Shown in pieces: positions 2,880 through 63,733 of a DNA stretch of 64,000 nt. This stretch comes from Escherichia phage LHE83. Both the position numbers and the translations under genes were made by a program. The stretch lies in sequence record OQ561750; one strand, given 5' to 3'. Position 1 is the stretch's first letter, and every line of letters begins with the position of its first letter. A model generated the notes under the pieces. The model was not told where the DNA came from. It made no database searches and worked only from the letters and a program-made list of their open reading frames with translations.

Positions 2880-3412
2880 AACCAAAAATCATTGTTATCG
2901 ACGGCCCGGATAATTCCGGGAAGTCTACTTTAATTGAATCACTTTTATCTGATAAGAAATATCGTCTTATTGATTTCCCTAAAAAGATTAATGGCAAATG
3001 CATTTCATTAGGGACCGATAATGACAAGGCTTTAGTCGAGACGTTGTATAAGTTTTTAGACCCTAATTTCGTTTACATCCTTGACCGTGGTTATCCAAGT
3101 AATATTGTTTACTCGGGATTCCTTCGCGGTGAAATGGACCCTTATGTAGAACTGGAAGATTGGAAAAGGTTTAAATCTGAATTCAATATTATTGAGGTTA
3201 TTTTAACCCGTAATCCACTGGATAAAGACTTTGAAGATGACCTTATTAAATTAACCAAAGATGAGTTCAACCTAACTATCCGGCAATATGAAACATGTTT
3301 TGAAAACGTGTTTAAAATCTTAAATCACGACGGCCATAATAACTTGCTTAACGTCGATATGGTAGAATTAAAACGTCTGAATGAATATATTGAAAATAAG
3401 GTGAATAAATGA
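2876..3412 (+). CDS. thymidylate-kinase-like P-loop nucleotide kinase
   Basis: Walker A IVIDGPDNSGKST and DRGYPSNIVYSG resembling Tmk P-loop and DRxxxS..AYQG motifs; GTG start overlapping upstream stop (GTGA). Confidence 0.65.
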   Translation: MKPKIIVIDGPDNSGKSTLIESLLSDKKYRLIDFPKKINGKCISLGTDNDKALVETLYKFLDPNFVYILDRGYPSNIVYSGFLRGEMDPYVELEDWKRFKSEFNIIEVILTRNPLDKDFEDDLIKLTKDEFNLTIRQYETCFENVFKILNHDGHNNLLNVDMVELKRLNEYIENKVNK

Positions 3413-6569: not shown

Positions 6570-7993
6570 AAACTATTTTGGCTCAACTGCTAGGCAATAG
6601 TGATTATTTCACTAAGGTCTGGCCTTATATGAATGATTCTTATTTTGACCAGGGTCCTGCAAAGACCCTTTTCAAAGAAATTAAAAAACACGTCAATGAA
6701 TATAATGCAGTGCCTTCTAAGAACGCGCTGAGCATTGCATTAGATAACAGCACGCTTTCAGAAGTTGAACACCAAGGCGCTAAAGAGCTTTTAAGTTCAC
6801 TGAATGCCGGACCTGAAGACCAAGAATGGTTGGTTAAAGAGACGGAGAAATACGTTCAGAAAGCAGCGATGTATAATGCAACTTCAAAAATCATTGAAAT
6901 CCAAACTAATGCAGACCTTCCGGTTGAGCAACAAAATAGAAAACTTCCAGGTATTGGTGCTATTCCAGATATCATGCGTGATGCATTATCGATTTGTTTC
7001 GATTCTGAATTAGGTCATGACTGGATGGATGACTATGAAGAACGTTTCAAAAGTTATTCTGATAAAGCACGTAAGGTTCCGTTCCGTCTTAATATTCTGA
7101 ATAAGATTACCAAAGGTGGTGCCGAGTTTGGTACTGAAAACGTATTGTTGGCAGGAACAAACGTAGGTAAGTCTCTTGGTCTTTGTTCATTGGCTGCTGA
7201 TTATCTTCAATCTGGTTACGATGTTCTTTATATCTCCATGGAGATGGCAGAGGAAGTATGTGCTAAGCGTATCGATGCCAACCTTCTGGATGTGTCACTG
7301 GATGATATCGATGACGGCCATGTCTCTTGGCCTGAATATAAAGCTAAGATGGATAAATGGCGTTCAACTGCTACTTTAGGTCGTTTAAAGATTAAACAGT
7401 ACCCTACCGGTGGCGCTAATGCCGATACATTCCGTGCATTATTAAACGAATACAAACTCAAACAAAACTTTGTTCCACAGGTCGTTATCGTCGACTACTT
7501 GGCCATCTGTGCATCATCTCGTACGAAAGTTTTCTCTGAAAACAGTTACGGATTGATTAAGATGGTAGCCGAAGAACTACGTGGACTTGCAGTAGAAAAG
7601 AAATTATTGTTGTGGACTGCAGCCCAGACTACTCGTGGTGCGAACGTTGCAGCCGAAATCGATATGGCTGATATTGCTGAATCCTTTGGTATTGCACATA
7701 CTGCAGACTTCATGTTAGGTGTGGTCGAGACAGAAGAGTTTGCTCAGATGGGTATGCAGATGGTTAAGCAGCTTAAATCTCGTTATGGTGATAAGAGCTA
7801 CTACAACAAATTTAAGATTGGTGTTAAGAAAGGAAATCAACGTTGGTACGAAGTTGAAGACGATTCCAACCCAGGCCAGGTGAACACCGTTCGTGAGGCT
7901 ACAGGTGAGATGAATCGTCAAGCCGAGGTCAATCGACAGACGCTTGTTAATAGAAGTGATTTGGACGATTTAGCAGCATCTATCAAATTTTAA
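6554..7993 (+). CDS. 41: replicative DNA helicase gp41 (DnaB-like)
   Basis: 479 aa; Walker A AGTNVGKS; strong match to T4 gp41 by recollection. Confidence 0.95.
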   Translation: MVEVVETILAQLLGNSDYFTKVWPYMNDSYFDQGPAKTLFKEIKKHVNEYNAVPSKNALSIALDNSTLSEVEHQGAKELLSSLNAGPEDQEWLVKETEKYVQKAAMYNATSKIIEIQTNADLPVEQQNRKLPGIGAIPDIMRDALSICFDSELGHDWMDDYEERFKSYSDKARKVPFRLNILNKITKGGAEFGTENVLLAGTNVGKSLGLCSLAADYLQSGYDVLYISMEMAEEVCAKRIDANLLDVSLDDIDDGHVSWPEYKAKMDKWRSTATLGRLKIKQYPTGGANADTFRALLNEYKLKQNFVPQVVIVDYLAICASSRTKVFSENSYGLIKMVAEELRGLAVEKKLLLWTAAQTTRGANVAAEIDMADIAESFGIAHTADFMLGVVETEEFAQMGMQMVKQLKSRYGDKSYYNKFKIGVKKGNQRWYEVEDDSNPGQVNTVREATGEMNRQAEVNRQTLVNRSDLDDLAASIKF

Positions 7994-8014
7994 GGAGCTT
8001 CGGCTCCTTTTTTG
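7994..8014 (+). terminator. intrinsic terminator after gene 41 (GGAGC-UUCG-GCUCC + U-run)
   Basis: Perfect stem with UUCG tetraloop followed by TTTTTTG. Confidence 0.8.
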
Positions 8015-8022
8015 TTTTAAGG

Positions 8023-8051
8023 GTTTACATCTCCTGTAGGCGTGATACTAT
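8023..8051 (+). promoter_or_regulatory. early sigma70-type promoter (GTTTAC -35, 17 bp, TGaTACTAT extended -10)
   Basis: Consensus hexamers and spacing; followed by CCTATCAAC and SD/ATG at 8076. Confidence 0.7.
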
Positions 8052-8075
8052 AGACCTATCAACTTGGAGAACAAA

Positions 8076-8393
8076 ATGAAAACCATCGACTGTAAAGCAG
8101 AATATAAAGTGTATTATCATGGAAGTTGTAGTGTCGCTAATATCGGTAATATGCTTTGTCCTCCTGAGGAAACAGGAGTTTTGTCTGAAACCGGTCGTAA
8201 GAAAAACCTAAATCGTGTGTTCTTTACTGAAGATATCGGTTTGGCTAAGATTTATGCTGGACGTGCAGCCCGTTCAGTGGGAGGAGAACCTCGTCTTTAT
8301 CGTGTAATTGCTCCGGTGGATGTGGTTTGTTTAAATGATACTAAAGGCGCTACGGTTTATCATGCTGAATGGGCCTTCTGTGAGGAAATCTAA
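8076..8393 (+). CDS. hypothetical protein
   Basis: ORF with SD GGAGA; contains YYHGS...E pattern (weak ART-like). Confidence 0.55.
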   Translation: MKTIDCKAEYKVYYHGSCSVANIGNMLCPPEETGVLSETGRKKNLNRVFFTEDIGLAKIYAGRAARSVGGEPRLYRVIAPVDVVCLNDTKGATVYHAEWAFCEEI

Positions 8394-8597
8394 ATGCCTA
8401 AATTAGAGAAAGTAGTGTTTATTGGTTGGTTTGAAAATGGTAATATGTTTACCAAAGAAACCGTTCTGGATGTTAGTGACCAAAATATGATTGAATGGGT
8501 TACAGTGCAGTATGCAGAAGTGAATAATGCGCTGGTGAAAGCCTTTGTTGATGACAATAAAGTTTTTGAGTGTGATTACCGTTCTAACGAAAAATAA
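8394..8597 (+). CDS. hypothetical protein
   Basis: ORF with SD GAGGA. Confidence 0.5.
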   Translation: MPKLEKVVFIGWFENGNMFTKETVLDVSDQNMIEWVTVQYAEVNNALVKAFVDDNKVFECDYRSNEK

Positions 8598-8657
8598 CAG
8601 TTTACATCAAAGGGATAATGCAGTATATTATCCCTATCAACTACCGAGGAGAACATT

Positions 8658-8951
8658 ATGAAAAAGTTATTAATCGCAGCAATTCTTGCCGTAGCATCAT
8701 GTGGTACAGCTCCAGTTACTGCTGGACTTGATAAAGACCTTTGTGAATGGTCTATGACTGCAGACCAAGAATCGGTCGAACATCAGATTTATGCTGATAT
8801 CATGAACATCACTAAACGTGACCGCCCTGATATGGTTAAAGAAGTGTCAGACCAATTGGCTTCAAGCGGCGTTATGCAGTATAACTATGTTCTGTATTGT
8901 GACGCTAATTTCGATAACAAAAACATCGTTAAAGAGGTGACAGGTGAATAA
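8658..8951 (+). CDS. predicted lipoprotein
   Basis: Signal peptide with lipobox VASC; SD GAGGAG; preceded by GTTTAC promoter. Confidence 0.6.
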   Translation: MKKLLIAAILAVASCGTAPVTAGLDKDLCEWSMTADQESVEHQIYADIMNITKRDRPDMVKEVSDQLASSGVMQYNYVLYCDANFDNKNIVKEVTGE

Positions 8952-9384
8952 GATTAACAGAAATTTGGTTATCAAAAAACTTCGTTGTAAAAATCCAAAT
9001 GCACAAGCATACAGGATGTTTTGGAGCGACGACCACCAATACCTAGGTTATTTTCTTGTTGATAGCGATGATCGAATTACAATGGCTCATAAACTTCTTA
9101 ACAGAGAATTAAACCATTGGCAAGAACTTATTGCGGTGAGGTCTAAATTATTTTCATGCAATACAATGCACCAATTGGTTTATTTTTTCGCCGATGGTAT
9201 TCCTGACAAGGTTGAGTTTGATGGGTTTGAATTTAAAGATATCCACCCGGACAACGAATTGAACGACCGCGTTAATATAGATATCCCTAGCAAGTATATC
9301 AAAAACAGTCTGTTGAAAATTCTGGAAGCTCCGGTTTATTCAATTGACGACCAGATTTTTAATGCCTTTATGAATCGAGGTTAA
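8944..9384 (+). CDS. hypothetical protein
   Basis: GTG start with SD AGAGG. Confidence 0.5.
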   Translation: MNKINRNLVIKKLRCKNPNAQAYRMFWSDDHQYLGYFLVDSDDRITMAHKLLNRELNHWQELIAVRSKLFSCNTMHQLVYFFADGIPDKVEFDGFEFKDIHPDNELNDRVNIDIPSKYIKNSLLKILEAPVYSIDDQIFNAFMNRG

Positions 9385-9385
9385 T

Positions 9386-9607
9386 ATGTTTGTTTTAACT
9401 CAATTCTCTAAAGCGGTATATGGTTACTCCTGCCAGTGGGAAGTCTTTATCGATTCTCCTTCACCTAAGTACGGTGTTTTTGGACGAGTAACTACTCAAG
9501 CTTATGTTGCACGGCCTACTAAGCGCCAGCTTCGTAAACTTAAAAAGGCCCATCGCCAACTGATTGAAAGAAGGGAACAATATGAGTGCAATGTGTACGG
9601 GCTCTAA
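9386..9607 (+). CDS. hypothetical protein
   Basis: ORF, SD GAGG. Confidence 0.5.
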   Translation: MFVLTQFSKAVYGYSCQWEVFIDSPSPKYGVFGRVTTQAYVARPTKRQLRKLKKAHRQLIERREQYECNVYGL

Positions 9608-9773
9608 GATTTCTGTATTCGAGTTATTCGAAGAATATGAAATCATATCAAAAGACCAAGAAGCTATCCATATTATTGCTGATGATGGTGTGACTTGGAT
9701 TATTCCACTTTACCACGAAGATACCTATGAAGTCACTGATGCAAATGGTGATAAAGCTATTTTCGTAATATAA
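9582..9773 (+). CDS. hypothetical protein
   Basis: Internal ATG of track ORF 9564-9773 with SD AGAAGGGA. Confidence 0.45.
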   Translation: MSAMCTGSKISVFELFEEYEIISKDQEAIHIIADDGVTWIIPLYHEDTYEVTDANGDKAIFVI

Positions 9774-9789
9774 ATAAGGCCAGGAGCCT

Positions 9790-9951
9790 ATGAAATCTTT
9801 TAAAGAAGTTATGAACGAAGATATGGTCGCAGGCGATGCAGGTGGTAATCCTACTGCTATTGCCTCCGGAACTACCTCAGGCGCAGTCGTCAATAAAGGG
9901 CCTGAACAAATCCCATCTAAAAAGCGTAAAGAAAAATCCGAAAACGAATGA
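9790..9951 (+). CDS. small hypothetical protein (53 aa)
   Basis: Below ORF-track cutoff; SD AGGAG 5 nt upstream; ends TGA 9949-9951. Confidence 0.35.
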   Translation: MKSFKEVMNEDMVAGDAGGNPTAIASGTTSGAVVNKGPEQIPSKKRKEKSENE

Positions 9952-9989
9952 TATAATGGCTCTATTAATTTAGAGCCTAAGGAAAAATA

Positions 9990-11018
9990 ATGTCATATGT
10001 CGATAGAGAATTTGCTGTACGTGCCTTGAATTACCAACCTAAATTCAGACAAGTAACTGGTAGTGATTTTAAATTAAACTGTCGTTGTCGTGTATGTGGC
10101 GACTCCCAAAAAGATGAGAACAAAGCTCGTTTTTGGGCCTATCCGGCTAATGACGGCTCCGTAATGCTGCACTGTTTTAACTGTGACTATTCAGCAGGAA
10201 TTAAGAAGTATCTATACGAATATGAGCCTGATTTATATCGCGAATATATTCTTGAGAAACATAAAGAGCAATCGTTCGGGAGACAAGCGGCACCTAAGGT
10301 GGAGATATCAGAAAAGATTAAAGCCAAGATGCCTGTCATCGAAAAGCTTAATTTCTGTGAACGTCTGGATAGAATGCCAAACGACCATCCTATTATCAAA
10401 TATGTAACACTACGTTGCATTCCTGAAAACAAATGGAATCGGCTGTGGTTTACTAAAGAATGGCCTGCATTAGTTAACTCTGTCAATCCAGGGACCTATT
10501 CTAAAGAAATGCCTGAGCCTCGTTTGGTTATTCCTATTTTCAATAAGGATAAACAAATAGAAAGTTTTCAAGGTCGAGCCTTGCGTAAAGATGCTCCACA
10601 AAAATATATTACAATAAAGGCTCATGACCAAGCTACAAAAATATATGGAATGGATACAGTTGACGAACGTCAGTTGGTGTGGGTAATGGAAGGTCCTATT
10701 GATTCATTATTCGTACCGAATGCAATAGCAATTACTGGCGGGTCGTTGGACTTGGCTATGGTTCCATGTAAAGAAACTCGTGCCTGGGTAATGGACAATG
10801 AACCCCGCCATCCCGACACAATTAAGCGTATGCAACGATTAGTTGATGCTGGCGAAAGGGTTCTATTCTGGGACAAGGCTCCATGGCCTTCTAAAGATAT
10901 AAATGATATGATTATGAAAGATAAAGCTGATATAAATGATGTACTGGCATATATGAAAGCTAATATAGCCCAAGGTCTAATGGCTAAAATGAGACTTTCA
11001 AAATATTCTAAAATTTAG
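9990..11018 (+). CDS. 61: DNA primase gp61
   Basis: 342 aa, zinc-ribbon CRCRVCGD...HCFNC, same length as T4 gp61. Confidence 0.85.
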   Translation: MSYVDREFAVRALNYQPKFRQVTGSDFKLNCRCRVCGDSQKDENKARFWAYPANDGSVMLHCFNCDYSAGIKKYLYEYEPDLYREYILEKHKEQSFGRQAAPKVEISEKIKAKMPVIEKLNFCERLDRMPNDHPIIKYVTLRCIPENKWNRLWFTKEWPALVNSVNPGTYSKEMPEPRLVIPIFNKDKQIESFQGRALRKDAPQKYITIKAHDQATKIYGMDTVDERQLVWVMEGPIDSLFVPNAIAITGGSLDLAMVPCKETRAWVMDNEPRHPDTIKRMQRLVDAGERVLFWDKAPWPSKDINDMIMKDKADINDVLAYMKANIAQGLMAKMRLSKYSKI

Positions 11019-11215
11019 GCAGGAACTCCGCTAAAGAATCCAATTATGCTTAATACGTGTTCCATTGTAACCGCTGGTAAAATTATCCCTTGGCTAGCGG
11101 CTACAGGGACTACTAGAAGATTCCAAAGGAATACGTCTAGCGCAAGAAAACCTAACATCATTTTCTTGTCTTTCTTTTCGGCCAATTTCCAGATTTGGTA
11201 AAAAATACTGCCCAT
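11015..11215 (-). CDS. small membrane protein encoded antisense to the early gene direction
   Basis: 66-aa hydrophobic ORF with strong SD AGGAGG 5 nt upstream of ATG on minus strand. Confidence 0.5.
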   Translation of the reverse strand: MGSIFYQIWKLAEKKDKKMMLGFLALDVFLWNLLVVPVAASQGIILPAVTMEHVLSIIGFFSGVPA

Positions 11216-11306
11216 GTTATCCTCCTGTTAAATTAATATTTATTCGCTTTAATCTAACAGTTTATAATTATCTAACTTACTAATGAATTGAAAAGGAAAA
11301 AATATA

Positions 11307-11828
11307 ATGGCACACTTTAACGAATGCTCACAACTTATTGCTGGTGTTGATAAAGCTGAGGAAGCTTATTTTAATGCTCTGATTCACGAAGATAAAGACC
11401 CTCTGCAGGTTATGCTTGATATGCAGAAATCATTACAGGTCCGTTTGGCTAAAGATAAACCTGAATATAACCGTCATCCTGATGACTTGGCTACTGCAGG
11501 TGAAGTTGTTGATTGGTTGCGCAATCAGAAAGATTATATTGATGATGAATTCCGCGAACTTCTGACTTCTCTTGGTGGCATGAGCAATGGCGAAAAAGAT
11601 GCGAGCGCTGTATGGAAGCCTTGGAAAGCTCAACATGCTGAACGTCGTGAAACCCTGATTAACGATTTGTCTCCTGAAGACCAGCTCGAAATTAAATTCG
11701 AAATGATTGATATTCTGCACTTTGTTCTGAATATGTTCCAAGGTCTTGGACTGACTGCTGAAGAAATCTTTAAACTGTATTACCTGAAAAATGCCGAGAA
11801 CTTTGCTCGCCAGGACCGAGGTTATTAA
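11307..11828 (+). CDS. 56: dCTPase/dUTPase (MazG-like) gp56
   Basis: Size, position and similarity to T4 gp56 by recollection. Confidence 0.8.
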   Translation: MAHFNECSQLIAGVDKAEEAYFNALIHEDKDPLQVMLDMQKSLQVRLAKDKPEYNRHPDDLATAGEVVDWLRNQKDYIDDEFRELLTSLGGMSNGEKDASAVWKPWKAQHAERRETLINDLSPEDQLEIKFEMIDILHFVLNMFQGLGLTAEEIFKLYYLKNAENFARQDRGY

Positions 11829-11830
11829 GT

Positions 11831-11838
11831 TATAAATA
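11831..11838 (+). promoter_or_regulatory. late promoter TATAAATA upstream of soc
   Basis: Exact TATAAATA ~30 nt upstream of soc ATG. Confidence 0.7.
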
Positions 11839-11869
11839 CACCTGTAATTAAACAACAAAGGAGTTAATT

Positions 11870-12103
11870 ATGGGTGGTTTCGTTAATATTAAAACCTTTA
11901 CGCATCCGGCTGGTGAAGGTAAAGAAGTTAAAGGTGTTGAAGTATCTGTCCCGTTTGAAATCTATTCAAACGAGCATCGTATTGCGAATGCACACTATCA
12001 GACATTTCCTTCTGAAAAGGCGGCATACACTACTGTAGTAACTGATGCAGCCGATTGGCGAACTAAGAACGCGGCGATGTTTACGCCTACCCCAGTAGTT
12101 TAA
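11870..12103 (+). CDS. soc: small outer capsid protein Soc
   Basis: GFVNIKTF...AHYQTFPSEKAAY matches T4 Soc by recollection. Confidence 0.85.
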   Translation: MGGFVNIKTFTHPAGEGKEVKGVEVSVPFEIYSNEHRIANAHYQTFPSEKAAYTTVVTDAADWRTKNAAMFTPTPVV

Positions 12104-12109
12104 TTATAA

Positions 12110-12131
12110 GGAACCTTCGGGTTCCTTTTTT
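12110..12131 (+). terminator. intrinsic terminator (GGAACC-UUCG-GGUUCC + U6)
   Basis: Perfect hairpin with UUCG loop and TTTTTT; identical copy at 32079. Confidence 0.85.
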
Positions 12132-12197
12132 GGTTTTAAGGGTTTACTTTCTAAGAAGGTTATGTTAAGATGGTCTTATCTTATAGAGGAGAATGCT

Positions 12198-12407
12198 ATG
12201 TTAAATCGTTGGATTAAACCAAATAAAACTTTAGATGAAATTATCGCTAACCACGTATTGAAAAAGTACTTTTATACGCCTTGGTATACCGAAGTTATTG
12301 TCCATTCATTTATGATGCATGAAGACGGTTCTATCGAATTTAATGCCGAAATCCGTCACGAGACTGATGATATTGATAAAGTTGAATTTAAACGAGGTTT
12401 CCTATGA
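12198..12407 (+). CDS. hypothetical protein
   Basis: SD GAGGAG. Confidence 0.5.
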   Translation: MLNRWIKPNKTLDEIIANHVLKKYFYTPWYTEVIVHSFMMHEDGSIEFNAEIRHETDDIDKVEFKRGFL

Positions 12408-12727
12408 TTCGTTGGCTTAAGAATTTTTTCAAGACCAAACCTGGTGAAGGGGTGGTTCCTATCTCAGGTCTGAAGGAATATGTTTATGTGGGCGATGGTA
12501 TGATGGAAGAAGTTATCCGTCAACCTGAAAAAGCCGGTAATGTAGGCCCGGGTGCCCTTCCTTTGAATTCTAAAAAGTTTAAAGAGCATCTAGAAGCTCG
12601 TCGCACAAGCCATATTGATACTACTCCTATTATGGTTGCGGCTGCTGTCAGTTCTTGGACTGGTGATTCTTCTTATTCGTCTTATGACTCAGGAAGCTGT
12701 GACTCATCGTCCGGCTCGTGTGATTAA
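12404..12727 (+). CDS. hypothetical protein (Ser-rich C-terminus)
   Basis: ORF. Confidence 0.5.
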   Translation: MIRWLKNFFKTKPGEGVVPISGLKEYVYVGDGMMEEVIRQPEKAGNVGPGALPLNSKKFKEHLEARRTSHIDTTPIMVAAAVSSWTGDSSYSSYDSGSCDSSSGSCD

Positions 12728-12927
12728 TGAAACCTTTATCATGGCTTAAAGATTGGCTGGACCGTCCTGGTGATTATCTTGATGACGGGTGGTTGGACCA
12801 AGCTAATGCAGAAATGAAACGCGAGTCCGAAGAATGGATTCTTAAAGGTATCCGTGAAGAACGCGAAAAGAAATTAGAACGCGAAGCTCTTAGAATTATG
12901 CGTGACATCTATGGGGATAAATCATGA
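12727..12927 (+). CDS. hypothetical protein
   Basis: ORF, start overlaps upstream stop. Confidence 0.45.
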
Positions 12928-13091
12928 CTACTGAAGAGGCCGAAAAACAAGCTAAAGAGGCACTGGATTTGCTTCTTAAAATTGGTAGTAAAATGATGAA
13001 AGAAAACGAGAAATACATCCAAGAAAATAAAATTCCGGATGGTCCTTTAGTAGGTAAACTAAGAAGAGGAAATCATAATGAAAGTTTATGA
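12924..13091 (+). CDS. small hypothetical protein (55 aa)
   Basis: Below track cutoff; ATGA overlap with upstream stop. Confidence 0.3.
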
Positions 13092-13785: not shown

Positions 13786-13809
13786 GACCTCTAAATCACT
13801 GGAGGTCAT

Positions 13810-14379
13810 ATGAACATCGAACAAAAATGTCTTTATCAAGACCGAATCAATTCCAAATTCTCAAAACACGAACAGAATCTTTTAGAAAAATGTCTAGATG
13901 CTAAAAAGGACCCTAACTTCCATTACGACCTTGATAAGCTAGTTCGTAAGCATGTTACTTCAGCGGTTCCGGTAGAGCTTTATCGTGGGATTACCGCTAT
14001 GGAACTTGAGCAACTTGAAGTTCTTTCTGTTGGGTGCCAGTGGTCTCCTGGCCGGGTTACTTCTTTTAGTACACAATACTCACAGGCTCGTCAGTTCGCA
14101 GGGGCATGGGAATATGGAACCAGAACCATTTTAAGTCTCAGGAATGCACCGTTCATTTTCGACTACTATAACCATGCTATCGACCTTGTTCTTGCAGGGA
14201 ATGTAGATGAGCTTGAAATAGATGAAACCCGTATAGACCTCTACGATATGGTCGAAACTGAATGTGAGTTCATGGTCTCCAGCCAATCACGATTTGAGAT
14301 TGTGGAAATCGAAACTATCAAAAGGGACCCGTACGAAATCGAGTACAAAACAATTCATTTAAAAATGTTGGATTTTTAG
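13810..14379 (+). CDS. modB: ADP-ribosyltransferase, ModB-like
   Basis: TSAVPVELYRGI (Arg motif) and C-terminal acidic ExE-like region; paralog of next gene; position as T4 modB. Confidence 0.55.
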   Translation: MNIEQKCLYQDRINSKFSKHEQNLLEKCLDAKKDPNFHYDLDKLVRKHVTSAVPVELYRGITAMELEQLEVLSVGCQWSPGRVTSFSTQYSQARQFAGAWEYGTRTILSLRNAPFIFDYYNHAIDLVLAGNVDELEIDETRIDLYDMVETECEFMVSSQSRFEIVEIETIKRDPYEIEYKTIHLKMLDF

Positions 14380-14433
14380 TTTACAGGCAAGGAAGCTTGT
14401 GGTACTATCTTTCTATCAACTGAGGAGAATAAT

Positions 14434-15048
14434 ATGTTATATCCAAGCCATAAATTAGCAGAATTTATCAACAACGCCAAATGCGATGATTTCCGTGAGA
14501 ATACTCAGATAGAAATTGATGAGGTGTATTCTGATTTAGAACAGAGCACGCTCTGGCAGTGTATGGAAAATAAACCAGATACTATCCAGGAAACTCTGAA
14601 CAAAATTATTCGTAAGAACCTGACTTCTGCAGTGCCTGATAAGTTGTATCGCGGAATTTCTAAGAAGACTATGGCATATCTTGAATCTACGATGTGCGTA
14701 GGTGCTGTAATTGAATTCGACCGTGTGATGAGCTTCTCAAAAGATTTCAATGTAGCTCGTAACTTCGCATCTTATAACTTCTACGGCACATTTAATATCT
14801 TTTGTATTAATGATGCACCATTTGTGTACAATTATCAGGAAGAAATCTTTAAAATGTTATGTGCCGCGCCCCCTGAAGAGTTCCCAGGTGCATTTCCTGA
14901 ATCTACCCGTGTAGCAAACTTACAATTAATCAATGATGAAGATGAGATGATGTTCCCTGCGGGAACTACGCTGAGCGTAGACTCTATTGAGAGAAATCCT
15001 AAATGGAATAATTACACCATTTGGAATCTTTCCGTTCTTTCTTACTGA
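14434..15048 (+). CDS. modA: ADP-ribosyltransferase, ModA-like
   Basis: TSAVPDKLYRGI and EDEMMFPAG (ExE) motif resembling T4 ModA. Confidence 0.6.
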   Translation: MLYPSHKLAEFINNAKCDDFRENTQIEIDEVYSDLEQSTLWQCMENKPDTIQETLNKIIRKNLTSAVPDKLYRGISKKTMAYLESTMCVGAVIEFDRVMSFSKDFNVARNFASYNFYGTFNIFCINDAPFVYNYQEEIFKMLCAAPPEEFPGAFPESTRVANLQLINDEDEMMFPAGTTLSVDSIERNPKWNNYTIWNLSVLSY

Positions 15049-15186
15049 ACCACCCGGTTTAATTGAAAGGCAAAGTCCTTGATTCATTATACCGTCGAAA
15101 ATTTAAAGCAAAAAAGTGTTTACTTTACCGAGCAACATGATACTATAGACCTATCAGCTAATCGTCCGTAAGATGAGAAAAATATT

Positions 15187-15936
15187 ATGCCTACTATTAA
15201 AACTAACGATGAATTTGAGTTAAAGGTTTACAAACGTCGCGAACACACTAAAGCCTCTGCCAAAAAACGTGGTAAGGACTTTAACCTGTCTAGTAAGTAC
15301 GTTCGTAGACTTCTTGAACAAAAAGTGTGTGCATATTCAGGCGAGCGCTTTGATGAGAATTCAGATAAAGATAAGATTTCGTTTGAACGCTTTAACAACG
15401 ATATAGGTTATATCGAAGGTAATGTAATCCCGGTTAAAGTTAAGTACAACGGGTTGCGAGCTGATTTGTCTTTAGATGAATTGAAACGTGCACAGACTCG
15501 TTTAGCGTCCCGTATTTCAGGTGGTTCTAAAATGCCTAATAGTTTTAAAGTTACCCCAGATAATTATTATAAAATTCGTAAAATAGTTAAAAATATTAAA
15601 GATACCCAAAGAGGTCTTAAAAAGCGTGAAAAACGTCTTAAGGACCTTATTAAATCAGGAGCCACTGATAATACCCCTTCTGTCATCGCGGTTAAGGCCC
15701 GTATCCATGGTTCTAACGCTTCAATAGGTACTATGGAAAAGGGTCTTAAATCTTTAATTGGTGGGCCTGATTGGCGTGTCAAGTTTAAATTGTCTGAAGC
15801 AGAAACGCGTTACGATATGTATGATAAAATTATTCAAGGTCTGGAGCGTTTAGAACACCTTTCTTTTATTGACAAAATGAAGTTGAAAAAAGGTCTTCCG
15901 CTGAATGCTTCAATTTTTTCACTGATTAGAGGTTAA
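15187..15936 (+). CDS. Srd-like protein (by position)
   Basis: 249 aa between mod genes and dda; N-terminal CAYSGERF...SFERFNNDIGYIEGN HNH_3-like pattern. Confidence 0.35.
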   Translation: MPTIKTNDEFELKVYKRREHTKASAKKRGKDFNLSSKYVRRLLEQKVCAYSGERFDENSDKDKISFERFNNDIGYIEGNVIPVKVKYNGLRADLSLDELKRAQTRLASRISGGSKMPNSFKVTPDNYYKIRKIVKNIKDTQRGLKKREKRLKDLIKSGATDNTPSVIAVKARIHGSNASIGTMEKGLKSLIGGPDWRVKFKLSEAETRYDMYDKIIQGLERLEHLSFIDKMKLKKGLPLNASIFSLIRG

Positions 15937-18487: not shown

Positions 18488-18516
18488 GTTTACTTCTCCT
18501 CATGACATGTTATTAT
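18488..18516 (+). promoter_or_regulatory. early promoter (GTTTAC, 17 bp, TGtTATTAT) flanked by 10-bp inverted repeat
   Basis: Arms TCTCCTCATG 18495-18504 and CATGAGGAGA 18529-18538; the 3' arm contains the SD. Confidence 0.7.
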
Positions 18517-18543
18517 CTACCCTATCAACATGAGGAGAACAAA

Positions 18544-19053
18544 ATGAAAATTTATCGAGTCGAGTCATCGTTCAGTATCTTAGATAACAGCGATGTTATA
18601 GCAATCACTCACCAACAGTGCCGCCAATTAACACCGTATAGAGGCTCGTTTGATGAATGGAGCGAAGGTTGGTTATTAGAAGTAGGTTTCGACAGACCCA
18701 ATTTTAGGCACCACCATACCAATAATAAAAATATTCCGCTACCAGGTCAAGACAAGTTGTTGGTGGAAAATTCTAATAAAAGCATTAGAACTAAGTGGAA
18801 CCAGCCTGATTATGAAGGCTGTGATGATTATATTCCAGGTTGGTTTGTTAATCTCTACCATTTTGCTTTTGCCAGTGAGTATGATATGATGCGCTGGTTC
18901 ACTCGTGAAGAGCGTGAAGAATTATCTTCTAAAGGATTCTATCTTGCCGTTTACGAAATCCCTGAAGATGAGGTTGTCATTGGTGGCCGCCAAGTAATGT
19001 TCCGCAAATCCCATGCTGAACTCGTAGATTTTATTGAATTGAGAACAATATGA
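18544..19053 (+). CDS. hypothetical protein
   Basis: SD GAGGAG. Confidence 0.55.
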   Translation: MKIYRVESSFSILDNSDVIAITHQQCRQLTPYRGSFDEWSEGWLLEVGFDRPNFRHHHTNNKNIPLPGQDKLLVENSNKSIRTKWNQPDYEGCDDYIPGWFVNLYHFAFASEYDMMRWFTREEREELSSKGFYLAVYEIPEDEVVIGGRQVMFRKSHAELVDFIELRTI

Positions 19054-19600: not shown

Positions 19601-19629
19601 GTTTACTTTATCGAGAGCCATGTTATAAT
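19601..19629 (+). promoter_or_regulatory. early promoter (GTTTAC, 17 bp, TGtTATAAT) embedded in 9-bp inverted repeat
   Basis: Arms GAGAGCCAT 19613-19621 / ATGGCTCTC 19628-19636. Confidence 0.7.
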
Positions 19630-19671
19630 GGCTCTCATGGAGAATAAACTTATTAACCAAGAGAGAAAATT

Positions 19672-20223: not shown

Positions 20224-20295
20224 AGTTTAAAAACAGTATACACTATGGTAGGGTAGTGATACTATTACCCTATCAACAAATGAGAGGAAAATAAA

Positions 20296-20514
20296 ATGGC
20301 TAAAGTTACTGTGAACTCGACTCGTGAAGAATTTGAAGATGTTCTGTTCAACCCTGATTTAATCGTGGTTCAAAAGGAACATTCTGATACGTTTTCTCAT
20401 TTATCGTCGGTTTATGTATACGAAAACCAAGGTGACAAAAATCCTATCTATGCAGTGTTCCGTGAAATCACTGCTGAAGGCATTGACTACTGGAAGGAGA
20501 CTTATAATGTCTAA
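20296..20514 (+). CDS. hypothetical protein
   Basis: SD GAGAGGA. Confidence 0.5.
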   Translation: MAKVTVNSTREEFEDVLFNPDLIVVQKEHSDTFSHLSSVYVYENQGDKNPIYAVFREITAEGIDYWKETYNV

Positions 20515-21356: not shown

Positions 21357-21372
21357 GGGCTTCGGCCCTTTT
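21357..21372 (+). terminator. intrinsic terminator (GGGC-UUCG-GCCC + U4)
   Basis: Hairpin plus T-run directly after stop. Confidence 0.7.
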
Positions 21373-26265: not shown

Positions 26266-27231
26266 ATGTACAATATTAAGTGTTTGACCTCCGCTGAGCA
26301 AGTTGAAATCGTTAAGTTATATATTTCTGGTAATTATACTCAGAATGAGTTGGCTGACTGGTACAGTGTATCAGTTGATACAATCCGTAAAGTCCTGAAA
26401 AATGCTAAAGGAGCTGGACAGGCCCAGGTAGTTATTACCGGAAATATCAAAGTAACAGTTCCTAACGAGCCTCGTGAAGTTCCCGTTGAAGTTACTATTG
26501 GCGGCTCTCGCCCTGAAATTATCTGGAACGCGAGTTCTAAATTCGTATCCATCACTGAAGGTCGTACAGTATGGAACACCACTAATAAGAACAAACATTT
26601 TGATGCCATCGTACAGGCCCTTAAAGAATCCCGTTTTGACGACGCGATTAAACTGATTTCCATTAAAGAAGCTGTTAAGGCCTTCGTCAAAGGTAACGTT
26701 CGTATTGAAGGTGGTCGTCTGGTTTACCAAGGCATCGAATTGCGTTCAGGGTTGATTGACCGTATTATTACTTCAATGGAAAATGGTGAAGACTTCGAAT
26801 TCTACCTGCCTTTCCTTGAAAACCTGTTAGAAAACCCAAGCGAAAAAGCTGTACAACGTTTGTTCGACTTCCTGGTTGCAAACGACATCAAAATTACTGA
26901 AGATGGCCACTTTATTACGTGGAAGGTAGTTAACTCCGATTACACCGACTGCCGTACTGGTACGTTTGATAACTCACCAGGCAAACCGGTTAAAATGCCT
27001 CGTTCACGTGTAAACGATGACGATACAGTAACTTGTTCAAGAGGTCTGCACGTTTGCTCTCGTAGCTATATCGGTGCATTCGGTAATTCAAACAACCGTG
27101 TAGTTTCATGTAAAGTTAACCCACGTGATGTTGTTAGTATTCCTGTTGATTATGGTGATGCTAAAATGCGCGTATGTTATTATGAAGTTCTGGAAGACGT
27201 TACCGATCAGTTTAAATCAGATTTACGTTAA
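26266..27231 (+). CDS. rIIB: rIIB protein
   Basis: 321 aa directly downstream of rIIA. Confidence 0.8.
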   Translation: MYNIKCLTSAEQVEIVKLYISGNYTQNELADWYSVSVDTIRKVLKNAKGAGQAQVVITGNIKVTVPNEPREVPVEVTIGGSRPEIIWNASSKFVSITEGRTVWNTTNKNKHFDAIVQALKESRFDDAIKLISIKEAVKAFVKGNVRIEGGRLVYQGIELRSGLIDRIITSMENGEDFEFYLPFLENLLENPSEKAVQRLFDFLVANDIKITEDGHFITWKVVNSDYTDCRTGTFDNSPGKPVKMPRSRVNDDDTVTCSRGLHVCSRSYIGAFGNSNNRVVSCKVNPRDVVSIPVDYGDAKMRVCYYEVLEDVTDQFKSDLR

Positions 27232-28256: not shown

Positions 28257-28329
28257 ATTTTTTAAATAAGTGTTTACATACACCAAGGATGGTGTTACTA
28301 TCTTCCTATCAACTTGAGAGGAAAACAAA

Positions 28330-28587
28330 ATGAAATTCTATTACGCCAAACATAAAATTACCCGTGAGTTTGTATCGTTTTCAACCTTTTCAGATGAAGA
28401 AGACTTTTGCATCACTGGTCTGGATTTATCTAAATATGAAACCGACCAGCCTTATTTGACCACTCATGACGAGATTCAACGTTTGGTGAACGGTGAGCTA
28501 AATAATTCTTACTGCACTCAAATTTACCCTGCTTTGAAAAAAGCTATCAATGCTAATCAGATTGAAATCATTGAGGTGGAATTGTGA
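28330..28587 (+). CDS. hypothetical protein, small paralog 1
   Basis: KFYYAKHKIT...LVNGELNN shared with next ORF. Confidence 0.55.
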   Translation: MKFYYAKHKITREFVSFSTFSDEEDFCITGLDLSKYETDQPYLTTHDEIQRLVNGELNNSYCTQIYPALKKAINANQIEIIEVEL

Positions 28588-28850: not shown

Positions 28851-28995
28851 GTAGCAAAATGTGGTGCCTTATTTGGTTGACCTGTATCCCAGTGATTTGC
28901 GTATGTTTTAGTTTATTGTTGTGAAAATTGGCATAAAACAGTGTACATCTCCATTAATCATGATATTATAGACCTATCAACTAATGGAGATGATT

Positions 28996-29339: not shown

Positions 29340-29684
29340 ATGTCTAAATTATTTTTTGGTAATCGCAACATTATGTTCTTTAAACAACTCAGCCTCCAAG
29401 ATGCATCGGTGGCATTCAATCAAAGTATGATTCCCGGTGTAGATTCAAAAATTATGACGAGTGCTGATTTCGTTTTCGTTCAAGACCCAGAAACAGGCTT
29501 TTATCGGTTCATTAAATTTCGTATGAGTATGGACCCAGGTTATCATAGTGCTTACTACGTGAGTTATGAAAACGTTATCAAAGAATTACGTGATACCTAT
29601 GGACGCGCTTTGAACCCGCTGAACAAGGTTTATAATGCTTCTTTTTATACGAGCGGATTTATTTTAGAACAGCTACAAAAATAG
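29340..29684 (+). CDS. hypothetical protein
   Basis: SD AAGGA. Confidence 0.5.
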   Translation: MSKLFFGNRNIMFFKQLSLQDASVAFNQSMIPGVDSKIMTSADFVFVQDPETGFYRFIKFRMSMDPGYHSAYYVSYENVIKELRDTYGRALNPLNKVYNASFYTSGFILEQLQK

Positions 29685-29712
29685 TTTACAACCTCGAGAA
29701 TCGTGTTATAAT
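29684..29712 (+). promoter_or_regulatory. early promoter (GTTTAC, 17 bp, TGtTATAAT) with flanking inverted repeat CGAGAA/TTCTCG
   Basis: Hexamers and spacing. Confidence 0.7.
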
Positions 29713-29761
29713 GGTTCTCGTTGACTGGATAACAAAACATTAATCTACTGAGGAAATTGAT

Positions 29762-31977: not shown

Positions 31978-32078
31978 GCCTTGGAGTCGAGTTCTTGTTA
32001 CTCTGTATCTTTGCTGTTATTCTGGGCCTGGCGACAGGCTTAGCTATAGGTTTAATAGCAGCTCACTTTAAAAAGTAA
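31974..32078 (+). CDS. small membrane peptide (34 aa)
   Basis: SD GGAGG; ATGA overlap with gene 52 stop; followed directly by terminator. Confidence 0.5.
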   Translation: MSLGVEFLLLCIFAVILGLATGLAIGLIAAHFKK

Positions 32079-32100
32079 GGAACCTTCGGGTTCCTTTTTT
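32079..32100 (+). terminator. intrinsic terminator (GGAACC-UUCG-GGUUCC + U6)
   Basis: Identical to the terminator at 12110. Confidence 0.85.
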
Positions 32101-32117
32101 GGTTTAGTGAAAAAAGT

Positions 32118-32146
32118 GTTTACTTCTGCTTTAAACATGATACTAT
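32118..32146 (+). promoter_or_regulatory. early promoter (GTTTAC, 17 bp, TGaTACTAT) upstream of motA
   Basis: Hexamers/spacing. Confidence 0.7.
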
Positions 32147-32184
32147 AGACCTATCAAAACAATAGAGTGAAATGGAGATACAAA

Positions 32185-34513: not shown

Positions 34514-34568
34514 GGATATGTTAGTATAGCCCTATCAGATAATGACGTACTGAATTGAAGAGAATATT

Positions 34569-34844
34569 ATGACTAAAATTGAAATCGTTTCCGAAATTGC
34601 TACTATTGTTTCCATTTTGATTAAAACGGATTGTGAAGACATCATGCAACGTCGTGATGAGTTTATTGCCTTTTTGAATGAGTTGGGTATTCGTAATGAA
34701 CATGGAAAGGAACTTAATGGTTTGTCTTATAACAAATTATTTAAGTCATTAACTGAAGATGAACGTGACACTCTTATTGAGCAATTTAATGAAGGGTATG
34801 AAGATATACACCGTTACTTAATGATGTATACCTCCAATTTCTAA
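34569..34844 (+). CDS. asiA: anti-sigma70 protein AsiA
   Basis: VSEIATIVSILIK...FIAFLNELG...LIEQFNEGYE matches T4 AsiA by recollection. Confidence 0.9.
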   Translation: MTKIEIVSEIATIVSILIKTDCEDIMQRRDEFIAFLNELGIRNEHGKELNGLSYNKLFKSLTEDERDTLIEQFNEGYEDIHRYLMMYTSNF

Positions 34845-45630: not shown

Positions 45631-45661
45631 GAACCTCTACACTAATTGGACAGAGGTTCAT

Positions 45662-49516: not shown

Positions 49517-49545
49517 GTTTACAATGCCTTTAAACGTGATACTAT
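49517..49545 (+). promoter_or_regulatory. early promoter (GTTTAC, 17 bp, TGaTACTAT)
   Basis: Hexamers/spacing; CCTATCAAC follows. Confidence 0.7.
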
Positions 49546-49573
49546 AGACCTATCAACTACATGAGGAAATAAA

Positions 49574-49963
49574 ATGGAAATCGGTAAAACTTATGAACTT
49601 CGTCCTGAATGCATTAAAGACTTTATTGAAATGGACGAATATGAAAATAATAAAAGCATGGTCAACCTTATCCAAGACAACGGAGGTTGGTTTGAAGTAA
49701 AGGATATGTTGACTATGGATGGCGACAAATTTGTGACTGAAATCGAATGTGCTAACGGCGAGATTTATAATGCATTTGGGTTGGTGCCAAATTATTTTGA
49801 GTTGCATGAAGATGAGTTCTATTGCTTCCGTGAATATGTTGTGGAAGATAAAGAAATCGATGAGCCTATTGCTAAGGCCGGTGTGACTCAAATCCATTGC
49901 ATTGTCACCGAACAGAACGTTGACCAAATCATTGAACTTTTGCAAAAAACTTTTAAGGCCTAA
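49574..49963 (+). CDS. hypothetical protein (frd.x-type), paralog of 50576-50953
   Basis: GKTYEL...YFEL...TQIHC...LLQKTFKA. Confidence 0.55.
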   Translation: MEIGKTYELRPECIKDFIEMDEYENNKSMVNLIQDNGGWFEVKDMLTMDGDKFVTEIECANGEIYNAFGLVPNYFELHEDEFYCFREYVVEDKEIDEPIAKAGVTQIHCIVTEQNVDQIIELLQKTFKA

Positions 49964-50227: not shown

Positions 50228-50256
50228 GTTTACAACGCCTTTAAACATGATACTAT
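50228..50256 (+). promoter_or_regulatory. early promoter (GTTTAC, 17 bp, TGaTACTAT)
   Basis: Near-identical to promoter at 49517. Confidence 0.7.
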
Positions 50257-50288
50257 AGACCTATCAACTAATGAGTGAGGAAAATAAA

Positions 50289-50516
50289 ATGGCTAAGGTT
50301 AATATTGATATCGTTGATTTTGAATACACTTACGAAGTTATCCGTAATCGTTATCCTTCTTTAGTTATGACCCATATTAAAGATACCCAATTCTGTAGTA
50401 TGCAAATTGAAGTCCAAGGTCCTCTTGAAGACCTTACCCGCTTTATGGCTGACGAGTATTGTGACGGTATGCACCCGGAAGACGCTAAATTTTATATGGG
50501 CTTGATTCAAGCTTAG
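50289..50516 (+). CDS. hypothetical protein
   Basis: SD GAGGA. Confidence 0.5.
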
Positions 50517-50575
50517 TGTACAAACCAACGGGAACATATTATCATGTTCCCTCAATTGAATATGAGGAAATTAAA

Positions 50576-50953: not shown

Positions 50954-51029
50954 AAAGTAGTATACACCCAAATGGGGCTATGATATAATGGTCCCATACT
51001 GAGATAACAACTAAACACCGGAGAATAAA

Positions 51030-58498: not shown

Positions 58499-58526
58499 TT
58501 TACATCTCCTCATGATGTGTTAGTAT
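58498..58526 (+). promoter_or_regulatory. early promoter (GTTTAC, 17 bp, TGtTAGTAT) with 9-bp inverted repeat sequestering SD
   Basis: Arms TCTCCTCAT 58505-58513 / ATGAGGAGA 58541-58549. Confidence 0.7.
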
Positions 58527-58556
58527 AGACTTACCAACTAATGAGGAGAAAACAAA

Positions 58557-59057
58557 ATGAATATGCAAATGATTACTAACGAAATGGTTGTTAAGGCTTT
58601 TGGTGACTCTACTGACGGTATCCAAGTTTTTAAAGGTTCTCGTGCAGTAGGTTACCTGACCGATCTTCGTGTTACTTTAGCCAAAAATGCTAAAAAGAAA
58701 ATCAAGCAAAAAGAATACTCTACCCGTTATGCTGAAGAAAAGCGTGAAGCCATGCCTGAAGCTGTCAACTCTATGGTTGAGTTTCTCCAAAACAACCTTT
58801 CCAAGTACGATGCCGAGGTATTCATTAACATCAGCCAGCCTAATGTTAAAATCTCAGGCATCACGTTCTATTTGATTTGCGACCCATTAAGCGACAAGTT
58901 TAATCGCCTTGGCATTTCAAGTCCTTACCATACCGCTGAAGAATTGTGTTTTATGTTCGAAACGTACAAAATTCAGTGTGAAAATCCTAAAACAGTTCTT
59001 ATTAATTCCCTGTCACGTGATGACATCATCGAGATTATTACCAAATGTCTAAATTAA
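58557..59057 (+). CDS. alc: Alc-like protein (transcription terminator on cytosine-DNA)
   Basis: 166 aa, position downstream of rnlA as in T4. Confidence 0.6.
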   Translation: MNMQMITNEMVVKAFGDSTDGIQVFKGSRAVGYLTDLRVTLAKNAKKKIKQKEYSTRYAEEKREAMPEAVNSMVEFLQNNLSKYDAEVFINISQPNVKISGITFYLICDPLSDKFNRLGISSPYHTAEELCFMFETYKIQCENPKTVLINSLSRDDIIEIITKCLN

Positions 59058-59685: not shown

Positions 59686-59789
59686 TTGAGACATGTGTTT
59701 GCGGTTGGGATGCCGTTAGATTTGGCGCTGCATTCTTTTGTTTTGGGATTGTGTTCAGCATGTGTATGCATGGTCTTTTCGGAAAGTAG
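59682..59789 (+). CDS. small membrane peptide (35 aa)
   Basis: SD GAGGAG; ATGA overlap with o-spanin stop; Cys-rich hydrophobic. Confidence 0.45.
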   Translation: MIETCVCGWDAVRFGAAFFCFGIVFSMCMHGLFGK

Positions 59790-59852
59790 TTTACAAACTC
59801 TTGGGAGCAGAGTATAATGCTCCTACGGATTATAAAAATTGAGGAAATTATT

Positions 59853-61748: not shown

Positions 61749-61810
61749 GTGTTTACACTATGGTAGGACTGTGGTATAGTAGTCCTACCGAAACAAATGA
61801 GGAAATCGAA

Positions 61811-63675: not shown

Positions 63676-63733
63676 TATGCTTTAAGAATAGCGTGTTATT
63701 ATTAATCTATCAACAAAACAATATGGATTAAAT

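Follow-up and report, generated by a model that had tools for sequence, protein, structure and literature searches.

A repeated start-site block in the T4-type early promoter cassettes of a Dhakavirus-type coliphage

A short block, CCTATCAAC, lies just downstream of the -10 element of a promoter at positions 8023 to 8051 of the 64,000-nucleotide stretch of DNA analysed here (the window), and it recurs behind many other promoters of the window. What is this block, and what keeps its wording so nearly invariant? An earlier note, made from the letters of the sequence, had regarded it as a possible binding site of a phage regulator or as an RNase cleavage or 5′-end stability element. What the note left unrecognised in the block is the T4-type early promoter consensus.

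Block copies and promoter cassettes in the window

By megablast, the segment from 7000 to 13000 matched Escherichia phages E33, KIT01, MX01, QL01, WG01 and IME281 with 93-97% identity over nearly its full length, and the E33 record is filed under Straboviridae, Tevenvirinae, Dhakavirus. The gene order on the plus strand (uvsX, 40, 41, dmd, spackle, 61, 56, srh and ADP-ribosylases) is that of the T4 early/middle region, and the GC content of the window is 38-42%. By these characters of its sequence, we assign the window to a T4-like coliphage of the JS98/Dhakavirus type.

We found eight exact copies of CCTATCAAC in the window, all on the plus strand (8055-8063, 8633-8641, 18521-18529, 20269-20277, 28305-28313, 28973-28981, 49549-49557 and 50260-50268), where 0.37 copies were expected by chance and 100 shuffles gave at most 2. 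On the same strand and in a like promoter context, four further copies carry one mismatch, namely TCTATCAAC at 14412-14420 and again at 63706-63714, CCTATCAGC at 15150-15158 and CCTATCAAA at 32150-32158, and two variants carry two mismatches, CCTATCAGA at 34531-34539 and CTTACCAAC at 58530-58538. With eight exact copies and six near-copies, the claim of the earlier note that the block is repeated in more than ten promoters was confirmed. Its coordinates were right to within 1-4 nt, but the copies at 8633, 14412, 34531 and 58530 had been missed.

The first cassette stands directly 3′ of an intrinsic terminator hairpin at 7992-8009, AAGGAGCttcgGCTCCTT followed by a T run, which ends the gene 41 transcript. 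Its T4-type early promoter (8023-8051, plus strand) consists of a -35 GTTTAC(A), a 14-nt spacer and an extended -10 TGaTACTAT, and is near-identical to the T4 denV promoter. The block at 8055-8063 follows, with A 8058 as the predicted +1, and then a Shine-Dalgarno sequence together with a RegB/S1-type site, GGAGAACAAAA, at 8066-8076, whose sequence matches the consensus GGAGRAYARAA, with the ATG at 8076-8078 directly 3′. A generic promoter scan also called 8024-8051 and 8601-8629, as well as the intrinsic terminator at 7992-8009. The second cassette, with its promoter at 8600-8629 and its block at 8633, lies 5′ of the spackle gene (8658-8951).

Further downstream, the promoters at 14379 (block 14412), 15118 (block 15150), 28272 (block 28305), 34499 (block 34531), 49517 (block 49549) and 58498 (block 58530) lie 5′ of ORFs at 14434-15048, 15187-15936, 28330-28587, 34569-34844, 49574-49963 and 58557-59057, respectively. 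The promoter at 18488 (block 18521) is orthologous to T4 P8.1 and lies 5′ of motB.2, and the promoter at 32118 (block 32150) is preceded by a terminator at 32076-32105. In two cassettes the spacer has a complementary partner: at the promoter at 20236 (block 20269) the spacer TGGTAGGGTA is complementary to TACCCTATCA, and at the promoter at 28941 (block 28973) the spacer CATCTCCATTA and the Shine-Dalgarno region TAATGGAGATG are complementary. From -36 to +10, the cassette of the promoter at 50228 (block 50260) shares ~90% identity with that at 49517. What precedes the copy at 63706 is a MotA-box middle promoter (ATATGCTTTAA-N-TATTAT, start 63675) and not an early promoter. The earlier placing of the block in early promoters thus held for 13 promoters, and failed for the copy near 63700.

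The block-bearing promoters have the form GTTTAC-N14/15-TGnTA(C/T/G)TAT, and all 13 early ones combine a -35 GTTTAC with an extended -10 TGnTAnnnT, the two hexamers being 16-18 bp apart. An A/T consensus at -48 to -38 resembles an UP element, with 0.4-0.6 bits at -43 to -39 in the Dhakavirus set. The promoters are co-oriented with and 5′ of orthologues of T4 early genes, including dmd, spackle, the ADP-ribosylases and the motB.2 orthologue. Altogether 13 of the 22 early promoters of the window carry the block, and nine good ones do not.

The distance from the -10 hexamer to the block is 3 nt in all copies, with 18521 (4 nt) as the sole exception, while the start codon stands 12 to 30 nt from the block and varies between copies, indicating that the position of the block is set by the promoter rather than by the ribosome site. 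Given the usual distance of 7 bp from the -10, the A of CCTA is the most likely +1, and the block would extend from about -3 to +6. This supports the earlier suggestion that the block reaches across the predicted transcription start into the initial transcribed region.

The block in T4 and other T4-like phages

A scan of 78 kb of T4, using a promoter pattern blind to the downstream region, found the exact block before denV (65413, TGATACTAT-aga-CCTATCAAC-tacaGGAGa) and before trna.4 (73572, tac-CCTATCAAC). The promoters at 27080, 53943, 55384 and 70696 read TGGTACTAT-aca-ACTATCAAC-tactga, and weaker versions were found at other T4 promoters. The cassettes of the window thus share with the T4 early promoter consensus the GTTTAC -35, the TGn, the TA(C/T)(T/A)AT -10, the A-rich upstream region, the position before early genes and the block itself. 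They differ at -3, which is C in this genus (CCTATCAAC) and mostly A in T4 (ACTATCAAC), and at -6 to -4, where AGA is preferred here and ACA in T4. The T4 early promoter consensus reportedly goes back to work by Liebig and Ruger in 1989, by Wilkens and Ruger, and by Miller et al. in 2003, and it was reviewed by Hinton in 2010 (PMC2988021).

Conditioned solely on GTTTAC-N14/15-TGNTACTAT, a scan of IMG/VR returned T4-like contigs that mostly carry (C/T)CTATCAA(C/A) or nTCATCAAC 3 nt after the -10, and nothing of the kind in unrelated chance matches. We also compared 43 gp41-anchored loci, ranging from 99% to 62% gp41 identity, and found the consensus nnn-C(C/T)T-A-T-C-A-A-(C/A) after the -10 in four clades, which by gp41 identity are Dhakavirus, the 80% clade (Gaprivervirus), the 65-68% clade (T4, Klebsiella and Citrobacter types) and the 62-63% clade (RB49 type). 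With up to one mismatch allowed, CTATCAAM was matched in 24/24 Dhakavirus promoters with a TAyTAT -10, in 19/43 such promoters of the T4 group and in 5/5 RB49-type promoters with a TATAAT -10, as compared with 0.2% in random sequence. There were no matches in the 83-84% clade (0/19), which prefers CTTACACCAAC, or in the 74-75% clade (0/9).

A 33-nt unit of the extended -10 and the block occurred at 3035 places in 770 phage records. Among the matches listed, it was confined to T4-like genomes of 160-175 kb or partial T4-like records, with up to 16 places per genome, and in nearly all of these records it is intergenic and unannotated. A search of literature full text for the exact 9-mer CCTATCAAC returned unrelated primers only. 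The published record does describe "additional regions of consensus" beyond the UP, -35, TGn and -10 elements of T4 early promoters (PMC2988021), and a preference for C at -3 to -1 in the early promoters of RB69, RB49 and 44RR (PMC1524935).

Read against these relatives, the block is recognisable as the start-site and initial-transcribed part of the well-known T4-type early promoter cassette; it is already documented and is no new element. Since it belongs to a standard early cassette with many copies in T4 and its relatives, we take it to be ordinary promoter sequence and no new regulatory site.

Start element, initial transcript and leader

In all exact copies T-A-T, the most constrained part of the block, forms a YRY triplet with its centre 7 bp after the -10. 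Of 180 non-redundant T4-like promoters, 117 have a YRY centred at position 7 (22 expected), the triplet is depleted at positions 4-6, and 92 have exactly one purine in positions 4-9. An older rule of Y at -1 and R at +1 underlies what is now called the "start" element. In its current form, Y(-1)R(+1)Y(+2), this bacterial element corresponds to the T-A-T of the block, which stands at the optimal distance of 7 bp. Work on an E. coli saturation library showed that a YRY at position 7 determines the start site in 93% of the variants and makes output higher (Kuo et al. 2025, PMC12641261). Published dRNA-seq of T4 reports a +1A tendency (bioRxiv 10.1101/2024.04.04.588121). The start element, however, is 3 bp long, whereas the repeated block has 9 bp, and the element does not account for the CC upstream and the CAAC downstream.

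The initial transcribed region has a second feature common to every clade, in that G on the non-template strand falls to 0-12% from -4 to +8, as compared with ~20% genome-wide. Both the YRY at position 7 and the depletion of G are also present in the clades that lack the block. The initial transcribed sequence can change promoter output by orders of magnitude (Heyduk & Heyduk 2018, PMC5961368), and with TG and CG steps at +5 to +7 the polymerase pauses initially and escapes the promoter more slowly (PMC5961368). The block has none of these slow steps, but it also has no favourable GG or GA near +6 and so does not match the published "fast escape" optimum (PMC5961368), which weakens the argument for pause-free escape. 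A sigma-70-dependent promoter-proximal pause element was rejected as well, since T(-1)ATCAA ends in A and no TAnnnT is found in +1 to +10 of the exact copies. In T5 N25 and other strong coliphage early promoters, a +1 block is also common to many promoters of one phage, and the transcript starts with AU and continues for ~8 G-free nucleotides into a purine-rich ribosome site, although the T5 block has a different sequence (ATAAATTTGA). The downstream region of strong coliphage early promoters was reportedly treated by Gentz and Bujard in 1985 and by Kammerer et al. in 1986.

Leaders starting at their own promoters were predicted to be unstructured (MFE 0 to -3.7 kcal/mol), with an unpaired probability of 0.73 for the Shine-Dalgarno sequence and a mean of ~0.77 for the first six leader bases. 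They run into GGAG(A/G)A(C/T)A(A/G)AA, a strong RegB/S1 cleavage context. Durand et al. (2006) are said to have given the consensus of strong RegB/S1 sites as GGAGRAYARAA. A review describes the RegB/S1 site as 11 nt long, with GGAG followed by an A-rich 3′ sequence (PMC3014915). The block itself was rejected as a RegB target because it holds no G and hence no GGAG; the RegB-type site is found further downstream, within the leader.

These leaders bear on the possibility that the block acts as RNA, in which case the 5′ AUCAAC of the early mRNA, or the same letters inside read-through RNA, would set stability or processing, for example as a sequence on which 5′ pyrophosphate removal or NAD capping is inefficient, as a cleavage site of RNase E or another enzyme, or as a segment for loading of the ribosome and S1. 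Six of the nine block bases are transcribed, the first six bases are predicted to be unpaired in unstructured leaders, and the strong RegB/S1-type sites are a clear sign that the turnover of early mRNA is programmed. T4 transcripts whose first base is A are open to NAD capping (bioRxiv 10.1101/2024.04.04.588121). Moreover, CAAC is kept in the 83-84% clade with a shift of 2 nt relative to +1, which is easier to reconcile with an RNA word than with a DNA position. We nevertheless consider a role of this kind quite unlikely, given that -2 and -1, both untranscribed, are among the positions under most constraint, that the block keeps its distance from the -10 but not from the ribosome site, and that the case for it is one of composition. 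No Rfam family reached its gathering score anywhere in the window, and a structured RNA was rejected on this ground. No exact reverse complement of the block occurs in the window and one-mismatch matches on the minus strand are at chance level, so that a pairing partner or antisense RNA was rejected too. With no Rfam match, no complementary partner in the window and a varying distance to the start codon, the RNase or 5′-end stability element of the earlier note found no support.

The other function that the note had put forward, a binding site for a phage regulator, would make the block an operator over the start site, at which a phage-encoded DNA-binding factor shuts off or modulates this class of early promoters minutes after infection. 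The abrupt shut-off of T4 early promoters is left unexplained by AsiA, ModA and other known factors in two reviews (PMC2988021; PMC3014915), and the block overlaps +1, an effective place for a repressor. Only a subset of the early promoters carries it (13/22 in the window), its versions are lineage-specific, as expected under co-evolution with a trans factor, and the -10 is flanked by a weak inverted repeat of 5 bp, TGATA...TATCA. However, the halves of this dyad do not covary, as promoters with TGGTA and TGTTA still have TATCA, the block also follows a middle promoter, and the clade-wide features (YRY at 7, no G) are explained by the host polymerase alone. The fixed distance to the -10 and the T-A-T core, which matches the bacterial start element for the host polymerase, likewise argue against a regulator. 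We therefore hold it to be very improbable that the block is the cis target for shut-off or reprogramming of a subset of early promoters, where a phage factor would recognise (C/A)CTATCAAC and the lineage versions would co-evolve with it; if true, it would answer how early transcription stops independently of AsiA and ModA.

Stem-loops were found at some of the promoters. Inverted repeats of at least 8 bp between the spacer and the region -6 to +6 occurred in 29/180 promoters, against 1.5 expected. About one quarter of the promoters have a promoter-specific stem-loop, while several block-bearing ones have none, including those at 15118, 32118, 49517 and 50228. Retention of the block only for a hairpin bridging the -10 was therefore rejected, as the arms differ between promoters and several block-bearing promoters lack a complementary spacer. 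Short complementarity (5-6 bp) between the spacer and the ribosome site proved generic, with 54 cases observed and 51 expected on swapping, whereas long stems of at least 9 bp were enriched (5 versus 0.7), so that promoter-specific complementarity as a general rule was upheld only for the long stems. As separate observations, there are promoter-specific inverted repeats that bridge the -10, and there are upstream arms that pair with the ribosome site in read-through RNA only; these arms mirror the known design of T4 late genes (e, soc, 49 and I-TevI).

[quoted passage not shown] 2010, PMC2839356), and which are likewise associated with small accessory ORFs and recombinational exchange (PMC2839356). 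At RB49-type loci, CCTATCAAA forms the 3′ arm of the PeSL stem. The PeSL and T-even cassettes are analogues and not homologues according to the authors (PMC2839356), and PeSL differs from the cassettes of the window in that many block-bearing promoters here have no stem-loop.

Selection and cassette ancestry

How the exact wording is kept can be read from the mean pairwise difference per site within 20 orthologue groups. It was 0.26 in the spacer, 0.26 in the UP region, 0.225 at -6 to -4, 0.17 in the block (-3 to +6), 0.09-0.13 in the core (-2 to +2) and 0.245 at +7 to +12. Variable positions at -6 to -4 thus stand between a conserved -10 and a conserved block, and the sequence is variable again from +7 onward, a pattern for which contiguous conversion tracts alone are insufficient. 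Furthermore, the promoter before the orthologous "MKTIDCK" gene reads (C/T)CTATCAAC in three genera, although its spacers are unrelated and its -10 is TACTAT, TATTAT or TATAAT. The block is therefore conserved beyond the needs of the -35 and -10, as had been proposed, being kept at orthologous promoters with diverged spacers and -10 hexamers. At +3 to +6 (CAAC), in contrast, the block is well conserved among paralogues but barely more constrained within orthologue groups than neutral positions, suggesting that the conservation of CAAC may be mostly historical.

The block cassettes also bear indirect signs of exchange, namely promoter replacement whose breakpoint falls at the block and the recurrence of a cassette at sites that are not orthologous. 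The promoter cassettes are the largest direct-repeat families of the window (D1-D3), identical 30-nt terminators (D11) precede two of them, and the promoters at 49517, 50228 and 32118 have spacer sequence in common. The 8023 promoter is near-identical to that of T4 denV but stands at a non-orthologous locus. The spackle promoter of this phage differs wholly from that of other Dhakaviruses from -35 to -4 and is identical from the block onward, which indicates a crossover at the block. In addition, the block of this genus is linked to TAyTAT, and in the window TATAAT occurs in 0/13 block-bearing promoters and 6/9 others (p ~0.001 by our own arithmetic). A functional coupling of the block to TACTAT was rejected as universal, since RB49-type promoters join the block with TATAAT.

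These signs are what one would expect if the block, beyond a generic start triplet, were mostly a passenger or recombination linker, its wording functionless and its cassettes duplicated, spread and homogenised by T4 recombination, with the shared ~20-45 nt providing the homology through which gene modules are shuffled, an idea put forward for PeSL. The preferred block is lineage-specific, it is linked to TAyTAT in this genus and to TATAAT in the RB49 type, and the crossovers of PeSL have been located to the interval from the -10 to the ATG (PMC2839356). Nevertheless, conversion tracts would not skip the variable flanks of the block, diversity within orthologues is reduced, most of all at -2 to +2, the block persists at an orthologous promoter of three genera despite replaced or diverged spacers and -10 hexamers, and G depletion and YRY at 7 extend to clades without it. 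We consider it unlikely that the block is mostly a passenger. The earlier note had itself named a duplicated promoter cassette without conservation in relatives as a finding that would speak against it; the repetition does come in part from duplicated and exchanged cassettes, but the block is conserved in related phages, orthologous promoters included.

The exact wording is not dictated by the polymerase, as near-identical host polymerases serve the lineage with CTTACACCAAC (83-84% clade, 0/19). The comparison of sequences points to selection and cassette ancestry as both keeping the wording.

We favour, with a probability of roughly 0.6, the reading that the block is the cis start-site and initial-transcribed part of the T-even early cassette, where it would fix the start and give a clean initial transcript, its wording being kept by selection and ancestry. 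The cassette would comprise, in this order, an A-rich upstream region, GTTTAC, the spacer, TGnTAyTAT, 3 nt, CCTATCAAC, a short leader, GGAG and ATG, and would be read by the host sigma-70 RNA polymerase, unmodified or Alt-modified. C-C-T-A-T-C would offer it a lone purine between pyrimidines exactly 7 bp after the -10, and uniform initiation at that A is expected from a YRY start element at its optimal distance. The initial transcript, 5′-AUCAAC..., would be free of pyrimidine-G pause steps and of structure, and its G-free stretch to about +8 leads us to expect fast promoter clearance and an open GGAG ribosome site. Purifying selection on the wording would be strongest at CTAT, and it would also be kept by shared ancestry and because whole cassettes are duplicated and exchanged by recombination, both inside one T4-like genome and from one to another.

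The finding is chiefly an annotation aid, in that the block together with GTTTAC and TGnTAyTAT is a very reliable marker of early promoters and their predicted start sites in T4-like genomes. It would carry more weight should a phage factor or an RNA-end enzyme turn out to read the exact wording. Altogether, the start region of T4-like early promoters is constrained in three ways, by a single purine 7 bp after the -10, by the lack of G from -4 to +8 and by an unstructured leader, and these constraints agree with recent work that counts the start triplet and the initial transcribed sequence as parts of the promoter.

Early promoter classes and their start regions

We found that the early promoters in the window (n = 22) fall into two classes defined by the type of -10 hexamer and by the block, the 9-nt start-site repeat CCTATCAAC. 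The block was carried by 13 of the 22 promoters, all with a non-TATAAT -10 (TACTAT in eight, TATTAT and TAGTAT in two each, and TATATT in one). Among the nine block-less promoters, six combine a TATAAT -10 with G at -6 followed by promoter-specific sequence, and the other three carry TAAGAT, TACGAT or TATCAT as the -10. In RB49-type phages, however, the association between block and -10 was opposite to that in the window.

When all the T4-like promoters analysed were taken together (those of the 43 gp41-anchored loci L124-L166, of T4 and of the window), G was nearly missing from -4 to +8 of the non-template strand, at 0-12% per position, and this scarcity was seen in every clade, even those without the CCTATCAAC block. 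A different start block, (C/T)(T/C)TACAC(C/A)AAC, was identified in one T4-like lineage (loci L128-L131 and L162, with gp41 83-84% identical, as well as L035, L044, L078 and L085); it retains T-A-C at the start, with CAAC displaced by 2 nt.

Predicted pairing across the -10 and with the ribosome site

The -10 was found to be bridged by promoter-specific inverted repeats, in which part of the -35/-10 spacer is complementary to -6..+4. They were located in the window at 20236-20280, 8600-8641, 19601-19645, 29684-29727, 50516-50560, 50960-51003, 59789-59832 and 61751-61795, and outside it at T4-like loci L156 (1711 and 13102) and L080. Arm pairs include TGGTAGGGTA/TACCCTATCA and GAGAGCC/GGCTCTC, as well as ATTTGATAGGAC/GTCCTATCAAAT in the RB49 type. 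Bridging stems of at least 8 bp occurred in 29 of the 180 promoters of the non-redundant T4-like set, compared with 1.5 expected when spacers were swapped between promoters. Moreover, the variable -4 base covaried with the spacer (AGGGCTATAG/CTATAGCCCT vs AGGTCTATAG/CTATAGACCT). These repeats resemble the PeSL stem-loops, the promoter-early cassettes of RB49 and phi1.

Complementarity to the Shine-Dalgarno region was also found in sequence immediately preceding the transcription start, either within the spacer or from -6 to -1. Such upstream and Shine-Dalgarno-side arms lie at 18494-18504 and 18530-18540, 28946-28956 and 28982-28992, 58503-58511 and 58542-58550, 13786-13791 and 13802-13807, and 45631-45638 and 45652-45659; T4 carries a complementary upstream sequence at the denV promoter (T4 65413). 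Structure prediction placed the ribosome site fully paired in read-through RNA (unpaired probability 0.00-0.02), and accessible (0.5-0.8) when the RNA begins at the gene's own promoter. Spacer/ribosome-site stems of at least 9 bp were enriched (5 vs 0.7), and short TCTCC/GGAGA complementarity between the two was generic. A ribosome site closed only in read-through RNA is a design known from late genes of T4 (e, soc, 49 and I-TevI), and here it sits on early promoters.

Putative promoter replacement, repeated modules and middle-promoter candidates

We compared the spackle promoter (8600-8641) with those of other Dhakaviruses (L124 12419, L125, L127 and L160). Its -35-to--4 segment is unrelated to theirs but its block and leader are the same, which indicates a putative promoter replacement with the junction at the block. 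Identical 30-nt terminator hairpins, TAAGGAACCTTCGGGTTCCTTTTTTGGTTT, were found at 12107-12136 and 32076-32105, each followed by an early promoter; terminator and promoter form a repeated module. A near-identical ribosome site with first codons, GAGGAAAATAAAATGGCTAA(A/G)GTTA, was shared by two genes behind block-bearing promoters (20284-20308 and 50277-50301), suggesting either paralogous small genes or a cassette reaching into the coding start.

Searching for (A/T)3-TGCTTnA-N11-13-TAnnnT identified MotA-box middle-promoter candidates at 21371, 26101, 47653, 48435, 51791 and 63675 on the plus strand and at 15113 on the minus strand. Block-like start regions followed those at 63675 (TCTATCAAC) and 21371 (CCTACTACA).

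RegB-type sites in early leaders

Early leaders contain GGAGAACAAAA or GAGGAAAACAAAA (at 8066-8076, 18534-18544 and 28320-28330, among others), which fit the context of strong S1-dependent RegB cleavage, for which the consensus is reportedly GGAGRAYARAA (Durand et al. 2006). A review describes the RegB site context as 11-nt and A-rich (PMC3014915). Given the match of these leaders to the cleavage context, the early mRNAs that carry them are probably RegB targets.
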